Source of the DNA: Escherichia phage mEp554
Direction: 5' to 3' (one strand)
Sequence record: PP180005
Length of the DNA: 53,846 bases
A model generated the notes under the pieces. That model worked only from the letters and a program-made list of their open reading frames with translations, was not told the origin of the DNA and did not search any database. Shown in pieces: positions 3,896 to 10,088 of the stretch; positions within the stretch are counted from its first letter, which is position 1, and each line of letters opens with the position of its first letter. The position numbers and the translations under genes were made by a program.

Positions 3896-5311
3896 TTAAA
3901 AAGATGCGTTATTCTGATTGTTTCGTTGGTTAAAACGGCTTGTGCGATGATTCATTGACTGAATGCACGCTGCGGCTGCGCGCGCCTGGTCGCATGGCAA
4001 GATATTACCGTTGTCATCAAACCGCTGGTAAACAGTTCCAGACTTACCATGACGGTTTTTTGACACAATAATTTCCATATATTCGCGGGCAACAGACTGT
4101 TCATCGTAATATCCATCTCGGTAAACCATGATTATCCTGTCGGCATCTTGCTCAAGGTTGCCCGAATCACGAAGATCAGAATTGTTAGGTCGCTTGTTCG
4201 GTCGTTCCTCAACACGGCGGGACAATTGCGCCAGCGCCAACACTGGTACACGCAATTCTTTAGCCATCATCTTTAACGACCACGACAATTGCCCTACGGC
4301 GAGATCATGACGTTCGGCCTTAGCCAGCTTCATTAACCCGATATAGTCAATCATTACCATACCCAGGTTCGGGTGATCCTGCTTCATCCGTTCCGTTGTT
4401 GCGCGTATTTCCTCAACCGTTAACTGCGACGCGTCAACGATCCACACATCAAGATTAGCAAGTGCGCTCATACCCTGGCCGACATGCGCCCACCCCTCAT
4501 CATCAAGTTTTACAGGATTGCGCAGGCAGTCGGTTGATAAATTACCAGCGCCCGCGATAGCGCGCTCAGTCATCTGATCGAGTGACATTTCAAGCGTGAA
4601 GAACAAAACGCCAACCCGCTGATCCTTGCTGCCAGGGTAAGGTCGCTCAGCGGCAGCGCGGGCAATTGTCAGCGCCAACGCAGATTTACCAGACCCAGGG
4701 CGTCCGGCGAGAAGTACCAAATCAGTAGCGTTAATGCCGCCCAACATTTCGTCGAGTGGTTCTATACCTGTTTTGATGTTGTCAGAGTTGACACCGCATT
4801 CCATGCGCTTGCTTAAAACGTCAGTATATTCCTGTACCGCATCGCGCAACAGAACAGGAATGATCTTGTCTTTCGTTACCTTTAATTTTGAATACCGGGA
4901 ATCAAAATCTTTCATCGTCTCTTTGACGACCTCAAGCGTCCCAGTCTCCAGTTTGTAGCGCATATCGTCGATTAGTTCCAACATCTGCCGCCGCTGGTGC
5001 TCTTCACGTAGTAACTGTGCGTATCCCTTCAGGTTGGCAGCAGACGGGCACGAACGCGCCGTTTGCATTAGCGGTACGAAATTTTCATTACCAATCTCAT
5101 CACCGACCAGCAACGCATCTATGAGATTTCTGTTTCTGGCTTGTGCCCGGATAACTTCAAACGCACGTTTATAGAGCGGGATCGTGAACACTTCAGGATC
5201 AAGTGTGGCGAGAACATCTTGCGCGTTAGGAGTTAGGCCACCTAACAGCAGCCCGCCGATAACTGACGCCTCACGTTCCTGCCGTAGTGAGTTTATTTGC
5301 TCAGTTACCAT
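3896..5311 (-). CDS. Replicative DNA helicase, DnaB family
   Basis: 471 aa; Walker A GRPGSGKSALALTIA; DnaB-like N-terminal domain; GGAGG SD. Confidence 0.9.
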   Translation of the reverse strand: MVTEQINSLRQEREASVIGGLLLGGLTPNAQDVLATLDPEVFTIPLYKRAFEVIRAQARNRNLIDALLVGDEIGNENFVPLMQTARSCPSAANLKGYAQLLREEHQRRQMLELIDDMRYKLETGTLEVVKETMKDFDSRYSKLKVTKDKIIPVLLRDAVQEYTDVLSKRMECGVNSDNIKTGIEPLDEMLGGINATDLVLLAGRPGSGKSALALTIARAAAERPYPGSKDQRVGVLFFTLEMSLDQMTERAIAGAGNLSTDCLRNPVKLDDEGWAHVGQGMSALANLDVWIVDASQLTVEEIRATTERMKQDHPNLGMVMIDYIGLMKLAKAERHDLAVGQLSWSLKMMAKELRVPVLALAQLSRRVEERPNKRPNNSDLRDSGNLEQDADRIIMVYRDGYYDEQSVAREYMEIIVSKNRHGKSGTVYQRFDDNGNILPCDQARAAAACIQSMNHRTSRFNQRNNQNNASF

Positions 5312-5329
5312 TATGTTATTTCCTCCGGT

Positions 5330-6448
5330 TTACAAAATGGAAAATTCAGGGTAATAAACAAAGCGCCCGATCTCACCATGATCCGGGCTGTAAATTATTA
5401 CCGCCGCCAGGCGACGCGACCGCCAGCCGCCATTAGTTGAATAGGCATCTTTACCAGCTAACGTGCCGTGATACTCAACAACGCCCAACGATGATTCAAT
5501 CATCCGTTGATGATGCCAGTGCCCGCAGTGGGCGTAAACCGCCGCAGACTTGCCGAAATCCTCGCGCCAGTCAGCTACGCAAGCAGCCAATAAGTTTTCC
5601 GGCTTTTTGATAGTGTGCCCGTGGTGGTAAGCAAGGAATGTTTTCCCGTACTGCGTGTGGTGGACGATAGTAGGTGACACATCAACCGTCACGCGCGGTT
5701 CATCTTCGTAAAAAGCCGCCAGCGCCGCACGTAGCCAAATCATACCAGACTGGTCATGATTCCCTGATAACACCTGGATTTCCACATCCTTATGATTTAG
5801 CAACATCTTTCCTACAGCCCGCCGGACAGACCGGATCGCCACATAAACAAGTTTTGCGTAGCGCGAATCGCAATCAAGAACGTGATTGCTTGATGGCGTC
5901 ACTGGTAACAATCCGTCAGTGTGAAGCAGGTCGCCCCCGAGAAGAAGAACCGCTTTTTCACTCATAGGGGCAGCGCCAACTGCGTAGTCAAAGAAGTCAT
6001 TTAACACGCGTTCAGCGATCCCAGTGTCGTAGCTCTCGCCGCATTCAGCTTTATGAGCAAGCGCCCCGATGTGCAGGTCAAACACCGGATAAAGTGCCAG
6101 GCTTTTTTGAAAATCAATTTCAGGCACTGGCACGGCCTCCGCGCGTGGTATTTCTTCCGTGAATGCGTCGCGGGCCGCTTCCATTAACTGTTCCATTTCG
6201 TCGCGGTCACGGGCTGTTTTAATCCAGCGCATGATCACATTGCCATCCTTATCGACTAGCAACGACTCGCCATTAACACCAAAACCAGGAGCGCGGCGCG
6301 TTGATAATAAACCGCGTTTTGCCAGTTTTGCTCCCAGGCGTTCGACATTGCGTTTAGACATGCCGTACTTTTCAGCGATCTGTTTGTACGTTAATCCGTT
6401 GTTATATTCAGCGATCAATTGCTCATCACTGATTTTTCTTTGCGACAT
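5330..6448 (-). CDS. HTH domain protein fused to calcineurin-like metallophosphoesterase
   Basis: Phosphoesterase motifs DLH, GDLLHTDG, GNHD, HHGH, GHWHH; N-terminal LTYKQIAEKYGMSKRNVERL HTH; start at SD-preceded MSQRK. Confidence 0.75.
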   Translation of the reverse strand: MSQRKISDEQLIAEYNNGLTYKQIAEKYGMSKRNVERLGAKLAKRGLLSTRRAPGFGVNGESLLVDKDGNVIMRWIKTARDRDEMEQLMEAARDAFTEEIPRAEAVPVPEIDFQKSLALYPVFDLHIGALAHKAECGESYDTGIAERVLNDFFDYAVGAAPMSEKAVLLLGGDLLHTDGLLPVTPSSNHVLDCDSRYAKLVYVAIRSVRRAVGKMLLNHKDVEIQVLSGNHDQSGMIWLRAALAAFYEDEPRVTVDVSPTIVHHTQYGKTFLAYHHGHTIKKPENLLAACVADWREDFGKSAAVYAHCGHWHHQRMIESSLGVVEYHGTLAGKDAYSTNGGWRSRRLAAVIIYSPDHGEIGRFVYYPEFSIL

Positions 6449-6481
6449 AATGTTAATCCCTCCAGTTAACAAAATGTATAC

Positions 6482-7225
6482 CTATTTGCACGCAAAAAGT
6501 TCAGACACCCAAAGTTGACCCTTAGCAGTAAATAGTGATTGTACATAACCAGCATCCGAACATTTTACCACTCCATAGCCTTTGTCTAAAAACCACTGTT
6601 TGAACATGCGCCCGCCGCGCCTAATTCGCGTATCGTACACGTCAACCTGTTCAAGTTTTTTGTTGAGTTGCGTAGCAGTCATACCCAAAGGCTTGGCAAC
6701 CTGTGTAGCGTTGCGATACTGTTTGTTTCTCACAATCGCATCACAGACAGCCGCTTTTGGCGCTAATTCCTTGTTTTCCAGCTCCAGCCGTTCAGCTTCT
6801 TTCTGTGCTAATAGTTTTTGTTCCACCTCATCAGCCCATGCGCGAGCCGCAGCAACCGGGTCAGTGAAATCCGGCAAAGCTGGTTTAAAACCGTAATGTC
6901 CATTTTCACGCAAAGCAGGGAGAACATCCTCGCACACCCAATCCTGGAAGCGCTCAGCCGATTCTATTTTTGATCGCATCACAAGGCGGTAAACATCTGA
7001 TTCATGGATTAGCGTTACGCCTTGCGGGATTGGAGCGAATCCCAAATGTTCCATTTCAGAACATTTTATTTTTATCAATGACTTACAGTGATCTTTGATA
7101 GCTTTTTGTGGCGTAGCGTAACCAAGCGCCCGCGCCACATCCATTGCAACAAAAGCAGGTTTACCATCATAAATTACAGCAGTGATTTTATTGTCATCAA
7201 AATTAAAGCACATCAACTCAGACAT
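6482..7225 (-). CDS. Antirepressor-like protein (Bro-N N-terminal, KilA-C-like C-terminal domain)
   Basis: N-terminal FNFDDNKITAVIYDGKPAFVAMDVARALGY (Bro-N-like); C-terminal QVAKPLGMTATQLNKKLEQ (KilA-C-like); GGAG SD. Confidence 0.65.
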   Translation of the reverse strand: MSELMCFNFDDNKITAVIYDGKPAFVAMDVARALGYATPQKAIKDHCKSLIKIKCSEMEHLGFAPIPQGVTLIHESDVYRLVMRSKIESAERFQDWVCEDVLPALRENGHYGFKPALPDFTDPVAAARAWADEVEQKLLAQKEAERLELENKELAPKAAVCDAIVRNKQYRNATQVAKPLGMTATQLNKKLEQVDVYDTRIRRGGRMFKQWFLDKGYGVVKCSDAGYVQSLFTAKGQLWVSELFACK

Positions 7226-7357
7226 TGTAATTTCTCCGTAAAACGCGCTACAACGCAAAAATCCCACCGCGTAACCCGATTGCACAGGTTGCAGTGTTTT
7301 ATTGCGTCAGAGGCGCTTTCAGATGGCTAATTTTTGATTTACAGACTGATATGAATG

Positions 7358-7593: not shown

Positions 7594-8580
7594 TCAAAGA
7601 GCGCCTGCGCGTGTATCACGTAGCGTTTTTGGTTTAAGCAGGAAATCAAGTGTCGCAGTGAAGCCATCGCCGAAGTAAAAATCTGAAGCATTGTTTTTGA
7701 ACGTTTCAAAGTAGGCGACAAAGCCGTTAATGCTTTTGTCTTTCAGGTAGTCAGTGAACGCGTAGATCTTGCGTTCAAGATCCCGATCCAGTTCGGCAGG
7801 TGGCAACAGGCCATCAAACGTGCTGTTAAATGCCTCCACTACGTCTGCAGCGTTTGCAGTGGCTGACAGGTTGCGCCATTTTTCAGCATCAGCCAGATAC
7901 CCATCAAATTTAGTTACCCGGCAAATGTTAATAGGCTTAGGTGTTCCGCCACGACTACGCCATTGCGTTAAAGCCCACTCAATCACTAATGTGATCTCAT
8001 CCTCTGTGTACGCTTTACGTGTTTTTGTTTCTGTCAGTAGTTCTATGAATGGCTTTGCATCACGACATTTGCATCCTGCCTTGTCGTTATAGAAGGCCAG
8101 GCAACGCAATGCCGCTTCGTTTACTCCATCCTGATTGACCTGTTTTTCTTCTGGGGGGATACAAGGGGGTATATCTTTAATGTTCTCTTTACTGGTTATA
8201 TATGACTGATTAGGGTGTCTCTCTGACACTACCCCCGGTGTCACTGTGACACTACCCCGGTGTCTCTCTGACACTACCCCCGGTGTCTCTCTGACACTAC
8301 CCAGCAATGATGGTAGGACTATCACATAGAAGTTACTCGTTTGCTCCTTTCCTCCGATTAAGTATCTTGGTTGTTTAATCAATAGACCTTTCTCACAAAG
8401 GGCGTCGACGGCCCTCATTGCCGTACTCTTACTGATCTCGCATTCCTTTGCTATGTGATGATAAGAAGGGTAACACTCGCCGTTATCATTAGCGTTATCA
8501 GCTAACTTCAACAGCACTAGTTTGTGCATTGGGTTGCCGACCTCAGTATGGAAGACTTCTACCATTAGCCGCATACTCAT
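7594..8580 (-). CDS. Replication initiation protein (N-terminal winged-helix domain; iterons inside gene)
   Basis: N-terminal HKLVLLKLADNANDNGECYPSYHHIAKECEIS; four 22-23 bp iterons within coding sequence; sits upstream of helicase; start uncertain (8529-8595). Confidence 0.7.
   Translation of the reverse strand: MSMRLMVEVFHTEVGNPMHKLVLLKLADNANDNGECYPSYHHIAKECEISKSTAMRAVDALCEKGLLIKQPRYLIGGKEQTSNFYVIVLPSLLGSVRETPGVVSERHRGSVTVTPGVVSERHPNQSYITSKENIKDIPPCIPPEEKQVNQDGVNEAALRCLAFYNDKAGCKCRDAKPFIELLTETKTRKAYTEDEITLVIEWALTQWRSRGGTPKPINICRVTKFDGYLADAEKWRNLSATANAADVVEAFNSTFDGLLPPAELDRDLERKIYAFTDYLKDKSINGFVAYFETFKNNASDFYFGDGFTATLDFLLKPKTLRDTRAGAL
8214..8303. repeat. Origin iterons: four tandem 22-23 bp repeats GGTGTCTCTCTGACACTACCCCC, each with internal GTGTC/GACAC inverted repeat; AT-rich stretch at 8171-8213
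   Basis: Directly visible tandem repeats in rep gene, encoding SVRETPGVVSERH repeats; lambda O/ori-like arrangement. Confidence 0.7.
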
Positions 8581-8601: not shown

Positions 8602-8847
8602 CTAAAACATTAACTGATAAACACAGAAGAAACCTGGCAGCTGGCTGATTAGGCCGCTTCTTTTCAGTTGATGCAGTGCAGAGATAGTATCGCGTAACGA
8701 AATTTCGCACATTTCCGCGATCTCTTCCGGCGTTACTTCGCTTTTGCCGTTGCATCCGGCCTTTGTTGCCAGTGCAATTAAGATGAGTTTTTGCACATGA
8801 TCATTGTTATTCAGGCGAATATCAAAAGCCTTGCGAACGTAATACAT
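8602..8847 (-). CDS. Small winged-helix DNA-binding protein, paralog of the replication initiator N-terminal domain; first gene of leftward operon (Cro position)
   Basis: VQKLILIALATKAGCNGKSEVTPEEIAEMCEIS aligns with rep N-terminus; GGAG SD before MYYVRK. Confidence 0.5.
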   Translation of the reverse strand: MYYVRKAFDIRLNNNDHVQKLILIALATKAGCNGKSEVTPEEIAEMCEISLRDTISALHQLKRSGLISQLPGFFCVYQLMF

Positions 8848-9112
8848 GTTTCTTTCTCCTATGGTTAGAGTGAACGCGCTGGCGGGTATCAAATTAGCAT
8901 TAGATAGCAGTGACTGACCGCTGAACAGATCCCGCCGTTGCGTGATATTTGTTTTTCGCTTCGCAGCGACACCGGATTTTTAAAGAGCTTTTAAGGTATG
9001 TGCCTTTTGTGCTTTCCCTTATCTTTTTCCTTGCATCATTGCAAGTTCGGCTTTACCTTGTCTGTAAGTTTACAGAATGGCGTTAACAGATCAAGGATTG
9101 AAAATTACATTT

Positions 9113-9128
9113 TGTGACTTGCATCAAA
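9113..9128. promoter_or_regulatory. Palindrome TGTGACTTGCATCAAA in the divergent immunity intergenic region; candidate operator or CRP-like site
   Basis: Near-match to TGTGA-N6-TCACA; adjacent CATTTTGT motif; second TTGCATCATTGCAA palindrome at 9032-9045. Confidence 0.25.
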
Positions 9129-9153
9129 TTTTTTTAGGTTATAGGGTAGCGAC

Positions 9154-9801
9154 ATGAAAACAAAATGGTATGACTTAGCAAAACAACTCATGCGGGCGCA
9201 GGGTATGAGTCAGGATTCATTGGCAGATCTCATGGGGATCACAAAAGGCGGCTTGTCACACTGGCTTAACGGTCGCCGCGAGCCAAATCTTGAAGACATT
9301 GCGCGGATCATGCGGGCGCTTGGGCGTCGGCAGTTCACTGTCACACATGATGGAATGGTCATTGATGATTCTGTTTCTAACACGTTGCCGGGAGCGCCTC
9401 CTCGTGATTTAGGCAGTTACCCGGTTGTTGACTGGAAGGATGTAGCAAACAATATGGAAGACATAAGCAGATCAACATTGCCACACGTTACGACTAGCGT
9501 TATTTGTTCAGATGATAGTTACTGGCTGGTTGCTAAAGGCGAATCAATGAACGCGCCGCAAGGATTGAGTATACCAGCGGGGACGATGATACTTGTCGAT
9601 CCGCACGCGCCAGCTATTGACGGAAAACTGGTTATAGCCCAACTGGAGGAGGGGCAGATACCGACGTTTAAACAGTTGATTATTGATGGAGGCAGAAAAC
9701 TTTTGCGTTCACTGAATCCGTTGTATCCGCCGATCCCTATGAATCCAGAATCTAAAATCATAGGCGTGGTAGTGGATGCGAAGATCGTAAACCTGCCATA
9801 A
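9154..9801 (+). CDS. CI-like repressor, HTH_XRE plus LexA-like S24 peptidase domain
   Basis: N-terminal GMSQDSLADLMGITKGGLSHWLNGRR HTH; C-terminal GESMNAP (Ser) and TFKQL (Lys) S24 motifs; divergent from leftward operon. Confidence 0.85.
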   Translation: MKTKWYDLAKQLMRAQGMSQDSLADLMGITKGGLSHWLNGRREPNLEDIARIMRALGRRQFTVTHDGMVIDDSVSNTLPGAPPRDLGSYPVVDWKDVANNMEDISRSTLPHVTTSVICSDDSYWLVAKGESMNAPQGLSIPAGTMILVDPHAPAIDGKLVIAQLEEGQIPTFKQLIIDGGRKLLRSLNPLYPPIPMNPESKIIGVVVDAKIVNLP

Positions 9802-9832: not shown

Positions 9833-9925
9833 GCCATAAAAACACCAAAACGTAAACAGAAAACGTTATTTATTATTTAAATATCAATGACATATAAAAT
9901 ATTTTAAAAAAGTATACAAAATGGA

Positions 9926-9954
9926 TTGACTAGGTGTTTTACGGGGCGTATATT
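9926..9954 (+). promoter_or_regulatory. Sigma70-like promoter for rightward early operon
   Basis: TTGACT, 17-nt spacer, TATATT; TATACAAAATGG motif immediately upstream. Confidence 0.5.
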
Positions 9955-10088
9955 GCGAGTCAAAGGAGGAAGCAAGGCAGGGAAAGAAGGTTACTTGCTC
10001 TTTAACAATCTGGTCAGCCGCTGGAAGTGCGGCAATTAACGAAGATGATTTTTATTAAGTATCATCAAGGATATAAGGAGATCAGATC

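Follow-up and report, generated by a model that had tools for sequence, protein, structure and literature searches.

The window, that is, the whole 53,846-nucleotide stretch of Escherichia phage mEp554 that was analysed (sequence record PP180005), comes from the mEpimmI phages, a group of temperate, non-lambdoid coliphages that depend on Nus. These phages are reported to be as common as lambdoid phages in human gut isolates, and their switch and replication control have barely been studied (PMC11893012). Between a replication initiator gene and a divergently transcribed cI-type repressor gene lies a small gene (start codon ATG at 8847, stop codon TAG), the region of which is 91–94% identical to phages mEp010, mEp013, mEp021 and mEp044 (Table 1). 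Its product is 100% identical to mEp021_14 (AXN54133.1; tblastn), which carries only the annotation 'putative helix-turn-helix domain-containing protein, similar to MarR'. Database copies of the gene are labelled HTH or MarR-like, and one record says 'replication initiation protein'. The mEpimmI group genome paper makes no mention of gp14 and gp13 (PMC11893012).

Table 1. Genes and sequence features of the locus, in window coordinates.
Feature	Position	Strand	Remarks
DnaB-type helicase gene	3896-5311		
Conserved 380-aa protein gene	5330-6472	-	between variable slot and helicase gene
BRO-N + KilAC antirepressor-like protein gene	6482-7285	-	gene after initiator
O-like replication initiator gene, 333 aa	7594..8595	-	HTH_36 N-domain, iteron-bearing linker, C-terminal domain common to all group members
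Iteron array, putative origin	8214..8302	.	3.9 copies of 23-bp GGTGTCTCTCTGACACTACCCCC inside initiator gene; Tandem Repeats Finder
Small gene, allele A	8602..8847	-	81-aa stand-alone winged-helix (HTH_36-type) protein; ORF, sequence, annotation
Variable segment of small gene	8605..8748	-	codons 34-81 (helix 2, recognition helix 3, wing); deeply diverged alleles in relatives
Shine-Dalgarno AGGAG of small gene	8860-8856	-	8 nt before ATG; sequence
Control region, 306 bp	8848..9153	.	between small gene and cI; conserved in all architectures; divergent promoters, candidate operator palindromes
nutL-like site on leftward transcript	8956..8988	-	boxA GCTCTTTAA + boxB hairpin TCGC-TGCGAA-GCGA; upstream of small gene
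Candidate operator palindrome	around 9030-9045		CTTGCATCATTGCAAG
Candidate operator palindrome	9062-9075		CTGTAAGTTTACAG
Candidate leftward promoter	9094-9089, 9072-9067	-	TTGATC, 16-nt spacer, TAAACT
cI-type repressor gene, 215 aa, Rep021 ortholog	9154..9801	+	Pfam HTH_3 + Peptidase_S24; divergent from small gene
Rightward promoter	9926-9954		TTGACT-17-TATATT

Gene order around the small gene

When the map is mirrored it follows the order known from lambda: initiator, small gene, promoter and operators, cI with a terminator, a second promoter, a nut site and an N-like gene. The sequence-only reading had placed the small gene in the position of Cro, and on the map this is where it stands, as the first gene of the operon that diverges from cI, 306 bp away. 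The position of the nutL boxA on the minus strand implies that the leftward transcript begins to the right of 8990 and that the small gene is its first gene. A candidate promoter for this transcript (TTGATC/TAAACT) is inferred from its sequence; it received no score in a consensus scan. The two candidate operator palindromes were likewise read from the sequence. The nutL boxA (8971-8988, minus strand) forms an 18-nt inverted match, 89% complementary, with the nutR1 boxA region at 9997-10014. Three nut sites have been described, with nutL placed upstream of the repressor gene gp15, and Rep021 gives immunity to every mEpimmI phage tested (PMC11893012). Here the nut site precedes the small gene, whereas lambda nutR follows cro. 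A direct repeat of 16 nt, ACAAAATGG(TA/AT)TGACT, has one copy shortly after the start of cI (9160-9175) and the other at 9916-9931, overlapping the -35 of the rightward promoter; it may be a repressor site.

The initiator gene begins almost directly behind the small gene. Its product matches Pfam HTH_36 (E=2.1e-14, 53.5 bits) and PHROGs 428, 8540 and 4617, and is annotated as a replication protein in mEp021. Its true start is likely the methionine of MSMRLMVEV at 8580, and the hhalign register with the small protein begins at residue 5 of the initiator. The C-terminal domain common to the initiators of the group runs from DGVNEAALRCLAFYNDKAGC onward and is encoded in this gene, after the small gene. 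The origin repeats sit in the interdomain linker within the initiator gene, as in lambda O. The counterpart of the iteron in mEp021 is GGTTGCTCTCTGCCACTACCCCC (L001 array, 4919-5006), which has 19 of 23 positions in common with that of the window; the two differ at about 4 of 23, and the recognition helices of the two initiators differ in parallel.

From the stop codon of the small gene to the initiator ORF there are 6 nt in the window, which puts the start of the initiator 6-21 nt beyond the small gene, and across all loci the gap ranges from -4 to 21 nt. Because the genes are near-contiguous in all loci, we take them to be co-expressed. Stop-codon read-through, fusing the small protein to the initiator, would be in frame in the window, but the gap of -4, 2 or 8 nt in other alleles led us to reject it.

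The antirepressor-like gene that follows the initiator occupies a second variable slot of the early-left region, filled in relatives by Rha-family, Ant, zinc-ribbon or other genes. The contents of this slot show a weak association with the small-gene allele that looks like linkage. The 380-aa protein encoded beyond it has weak N-terminal HTH matches and is annotated as 'DNA repair exonuclease' in phage MagusPhagus. Between the genes for this protein and the helicase, mEp021 (L001 772-1275) and mEp515 (L002 526-1080) carry an HNH homing-endonuclease gene that is absent from the window (5311 to 5330). In E. coli strain 190 (L010 1536-2470) a probable frameshift divides the initiator gene into two ORFs, and the small gene upstream is intact.

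Homology and predicted fold of the small protein

The small protein aligns without gaps to the product of the 333-aa initiator gene, with 19 of 57 residues identical (33%; E=2e-7 in a single BLASTP comparison). When a profile of the small-protein family was compared with one of O-like initiator N-terminal domains (hhalign), the probability was 99.5% (E=1.3e-22) over 83 aligned columns, which span the small protein from end to end and, in the initiator, residues 5-94 with the wing. The protein also matches PHROG 4617, 'replication initiation protein', at profile positions 3-68 of 223 (E=1.9e-9). Pfam HTH_36 scores allele A at 19.1 bits, under the 25-bit cut-off, and allele B, one of the variants described below, at 32.5 bits, over it. 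The Pfam matches of allele A at E<=0.1 are HTH_Crp_2, HTH_36, Rrf2, DnaD_N and Phage_rep_O; at this threshold there is no match to Cro or HTH_3. A full-library profile search returned 1235 representatives, most of them 180-470 aa long and matched at residues 3-72, i.e. initiators. The closest sequences outside the group, 35-41% identical, are O-protein N-termini of Stx, ST64B/SfV-like and other phages.

An AlphaFold2 model based on a 15-sequence alignment is confident (pLDDT 89.2) and has the topology of a winged helix-turn-helix (H2-9, H17-29, E35-37, H40-47, H51-64, E67-69, E76-79). The viral-model folds closest to it are O-like replication proteins (TMq 0.83-0.87 in BFVD; 0.83 for Min27 protein O), while among solved structures only generic winged-helix regulators were recovered, with TMq of ~0.6 by structure and E>=0.02 by sequence. 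An AlphaFold model of the initiator N-domain built from its sequence alone (pLDDT 42.6) was unusable for direct comparison. The hydrophobic C-terminal tail of the small protein, LPGFFCVYQLMF, resembles junk but forms the second strand of the wing, with NFYVIVLP in the initiator and VYVVMLPEE in other alleles as its aligned counterparts. The chain stops behind the wing, at residue 81, and has neither a linker nor a C-terminal domain. By its model it is a complete winged helix-turn-helix, with an N-terminal helix, H1, H2, recognition helix H3 and a beta-hairpin wing. The sequence-only reading had claimed that the core of the small protein aligns with the initiator N-terminus; the BLASTP alignment bears this out, the profile comparison extends the homology over the whole length of the protein, and the structure prediction with its O-like fold matches agrees. 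We conclude that the small protein derives from the origin-binding domain at the N-terminus of O-like phage initiators.

The small protein thus has whole-domain homology and the same predicted fold as the N-domain of these initiators (HTH_36 PF13730 / Phage_rep_O PF04492; PHROGs 4617, 8540 and 391), and its gene likewise stands at the head of the replication module. It differs in being a separate, 81-aa protein that is optional and allelic within one group, and, lacking linker, iterons and C-terminal domain, it cannot itself be an initiator; it has no C-terminal domain that recruits a helicase or loader, and no cognate repeats that covary with it were found. With the MarR regulators after which many database copies are labelled it has the winged helix-turn-helix in common, and allele B and the initiator give weak MarR_2 matches (21-23 bits). 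These lie below the 27-bit cut-off (21.3 for allele B), however, allele A has no MarR match, and the small protein is without the flanking dimerisation helices of the ~140-aa MarR proteins, its model having no extra C-terminal helices.

The 5' leader of the small gene is conserved and open in frame (8848-8892 in the window; 4607-4720 in L002), as a result of which gene callers give versions of 96-122 aa, and such extended calls lie behind several database clusters of 98-111 aa. The homology to initiators and the ribosome-binding site favour the short form.

Alleles and empty slots in related loci

We compared ~60 related loci, drawn from E. coli prophages and 41 IMG/VR loci, contigs included. 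Across these loci cI (amino acids) and the 306-bp control region are ~92-99% identical. For the small gene, in contrast, at least five old alleles (A, B1, B2, B3 and D) can be distinguished, which are 35-65% identical to each other. Thirty-five complete E. coli genomes have the same cI and control region, and the match continues through the small gene in only four of them; in the other 31 prophages, similarity ends at window position 8853 (megablast query 294), at the ribosome-binding site of the small gene. The Shine-Dalgarno sequence (8856-8860) is thus both a mosaic boundary and a deletion junction, since some loci have an empty slot in which the initiator start directly follows the same CTCCT, the junction lying between two short CTCCT repeats. 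Distant relatives, in which the anchor protein is ~60% identical, had no small-gene homolog within 10 kb of the anchor.

Four architectures were found. The first, as in the window, combines allele A (81 aa) with an HTH_36 initiator. In the second, B1, B2 or B3 (84-85 aa) or D (78 aa) precedes an initiator with an unrelated N-domain, Lin1244_N (PF14297, E=7e-11), joined to the same type of C-terminal domain as in the window. The third has an empty slot and an HTH_36 initiator (L008, L016, L067 and L069), and the fourth an empty slot and a Lin1244_N initiator (L077). The last case rules out the idea that Lin1244_N initiators need the small protein. These initiators are the majority state among relatives (~48 loci) and have four 11-bp repeats, TTCATGACCCT, instead of the iterons of the window (L002 3917-3962). 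Because most relatives pair the small gene with this unrelated N-domain, its description in the sequence-only reading as a paralog of the neighbouring initiator is right for the window and does not apply in general. In all 57 loci with a small gene, allele A occurs solely with HTH_36 initiators and B or D solely with Lin1244_N, a pairing that may represent linkage or a functional tie that our preferred explanation, set out below, leaves unexplained. Allele D (P0025) was found on a Logan contig and had no match in IMG/VR.

The divergence between alleles is concentrated in the variable segment. At the DNA level the B sub-alleles agree to ~95% over the control region, the opening ~30 codons and the full length of the initiator gene that follows, and to ~50% over the 150 bp for helix 2, recognition helix and wing, which are the most variable within ~6 kb. 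The recognition helices read LRDTISALHQL in A, LHTTVDALNSL in B1, VHTVHDAFAAL in B2, VNTVMVAIDGL in B3 and VDTASYVIDVL in D, and their exposed positions vary in charge and size, charge reversals included. Net charge, counted from the sequences, is about +1 in A, -2 in B1 and -4 in D.

It could be argued that the small gene is a functionless relic: recombination would have brought in a new N-domain and origin, displaced an older initiator gene and left its 5' end behind. Its homology does begin at residue 1 of O-like initiators and stop where their first domain stops, empty slots occur, and several database look-alikes are frameshifted initiator fragments. Yet the gene is evidently maintained by selection: the window and mEp021 copies differ by eight synonymous and no non-synonymous changes, the medians of dN/dS are 0.09 (allele A) and 0.22 (class B), against 0.06 in cI, and the ORF is intact in 57 related loci comprising 33 distinct DNA alleles. 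With its own strong ribosome-binding site and a complete fold that is modelled with confidence, we regard a relic as very improbable. Over codons 34-81, synonymous sites are saturated between classes (pS 0.75), and dN/dS within classes is 0.18-0.23. The alleles are therefore old, each under purifying selection and moved by recombination, and the same two observations contradict recent positive selection as their source.

The small gene is a cassette, optional in this group, that sits between immunity module and initiator gene. Identical cI proteins are found with different slot contents: none, none and B1 beside WP_075842566; A, A and B1 beside WP_096549070; B3 and A beside WP_000853269; and B1 and B2 beside WP_021523509. 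The empty slot (five loci) apparently arose in at least three separate events. All empty-slot cases are prophages, those of E. coli PAR and Ecol_244 among them, or metagenome contigs, and seven of seven plaque-forming isolates have the small gene, so that it may still be needed in lytic growth.

These patterns bear on the proposal that the small protein is the Cro analog of the group, which would bind operators in the control region, lower cI (PRM-like) and early transcription and commit the phage to lytic growth. It resembles lambda Cro in its small size, in having an HTH-type DNA-binding fold and, once the map is mirrored, in its position as the first gene divergent from cI; no other candidate Cro ORF adjoins cI, and the empty-slot cases could be locked-in prophages, given that all plaque-forming isolates have the gene. 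A Cro would, however, have to read the same operators as cI, and such variation of the slot beside identical cI proteins is then unexpected. The recognition helix is the most divergent part of the five alleles while cI and the control region are conserved, there is no covariation with cI and operators, the mosaic boundary puts the gene outside the immunity module, the Pfam families Cro and HTH_3 do not match, and some members lack the gene altogether. We consider a Cro function improbable. The role in immunity that the sequence-only reading had suggested is at odds with the point at which similarity stops in 31 of 35 genomes and with the different alleles, or none, beside identical cI; it also fits poorly with a recognition helix and wing that are the most variable parts opposite a conserved operator region. 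If the first product of the early-left promoter is not a conventional Cro, the question arises of how mEpimmI phages leave repression.

Possible targets and roles

The other role proposed in the sequence-only reading was competition for iterons: an anti-initiator that competes with the neighbouring initiator for the array in the initiator gene and limits or times origin firing. In concept this recalls the short pi polypeptides of R6K. These are short forms of a plasmid Rep initiator that act as negative regulators, an origin-binding module minus the activating part, made beside the full initiator. The small gene differs from them in being separate and diverged, not an internal start, and its reading surface is unlike that of the initiator. 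The homology to an iteron-binding domain, the missing effector domain, the co-transcription from an almost contiguous gene and the exclusive pairing of allele A with HTH_36 initiators would all suit an anti-initiator, and from the 19 of 23 positions common to the type-A iteron variants, allele A could bind their core. However, the recognition helix LRDTISALHQL differs from KSTAMRAVDAL of the initiator, and the wing is shorter. The small-protein alleles also assort independently of the iteron and initiator alleles. The window and mEp021 have identical small proteins and different iterons (GGTGTCTCTCTGACACTACCCCC and GGTTGCTCTCTGCCACTACCCCC) and initiator recognition helices, further combinations occur in other loci, and in type-B loci four very different small alleles accompany Lin1244_N initiators that are nearly identical and share their 11-bp repeats. 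In ~48 loci the initiator has this unrelated N-domain and four copies of TTCATGACCCT. We think it unlikely that the protein is an anti-initiator, and the iteron-competitor proposal is borne out only in part.

Searches for what the alleles might track were made at several scales. Direct or inverted repeats of 7-9 nt inside each allele showed no pattern common to the alleles. Allele B2' (small gene of L015, nt 105-176) contains a 12-nt direct repeat, GGTACATGATGC, in two copies 57 nt apart that occur only there. Among covarying DNA near the gene (-3000 to +3200), the small gene alone stands out, together with a weak signal from the antirepressor slot. A genome-wide scan used three extra anchor genes to recover ~75-84% of the genome from ~40 related contigs; in a comparison of 13 B1 and 21 B2 contigs, the small gene alone separated both classes completely, and no covarying partner protein was seen in this part of the genome. 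Neither a recent donor of the variable segments nor an obvious specific mimic was found among sequenced phages.

That the small gene encodes an accessory, allelic, stand-alone origin-binding domain of initiator type, co-expressed with the initiator, is well supported. Our preferred explanation, which we put forward tentatively, goes further and takes it to be an accessory DNA-binding protein with allele-specific targets for which helicase loading is impossible. It would be made with the initiator early in lytic growth, from the N-antiterminated early-left (replication) operon, and would bind DNA via H3 and the wing, in the manner of an initiator N-domain. Having no helicase-recruiting part, it could only occupy or mark its site and would be unable to fire it. 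Its function would then be that of an accessory modulator of replication or early events and not of a Cro partner of cI. The DNA-reading surface is not the same from allele to allele, which makes a separate target for each of them probable. Since the searches brought up no allele-specific DNA in the rest of the phage, this target should lie in the variable segment of the gene or outside the phage, for example in host DNA or other resident replicons. The near-neutral to acidic net charge is untypical of a small DNA binder and counts against this explanation.

The N-terminal winged helix of DnaD (PF21984), found in replication organisers, is an oligomerisation scaffold and is not known as a DNA binder, and weak Pfam matches of the small protein to this domain (E=0.02 for allele A, 0.0015 for B) make a protein-protein role conceivable. 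It would act as an adaptor that binds the initiator, the DnaB-type helicase or a host protein instead of DNA. DnaD-like PHROG matches, which are also weak, the acidic-to-neutral charge counted from the sequences and the conservation of the N-terminal helix and H1 as against the variable remainder are in keeping with such an adaptor. But the DnaD matches are below the cut-off, the extra oligomerisation elements of DnaD are not in the model, and the variation falls exactly on the canonical DNA-reading surface. The nearest homologs are origin-binding domains, and the genome-wide scan yielded no covarying partner, all of which makes the adaptor an improbable candidate.

A free-standing initiator DNA-binding domain maintained as old, exchangeable alleles is unusual and resembles the evolution of immunity or receptor specificity. 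The literature available appears to hold no description of the initiator-domain paralogy, the cassette nature, the allele series or the independence from immunity. The small gene offers a candidate, easy to test, for a new level of replication control or for interference between phages. With regard to the latter, it is conceivable, if a long shot, that the allele series consists of orphan origin-binding domains for replicon competition, each recognising the origin repeats of other elements or another site. Elements resident in the same E. coli cell might be the targets, such as plasmids or those lambdoid prophages whose O proteins are of the HTH_36 type, and the small protein, without a helicase-recruiting domain, would block or divert rival replication early in infection. 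If true, replicon competition would account for the balanced old alleles, the optional cassette, the lack of matching phage DNA and the placement as first early gene.
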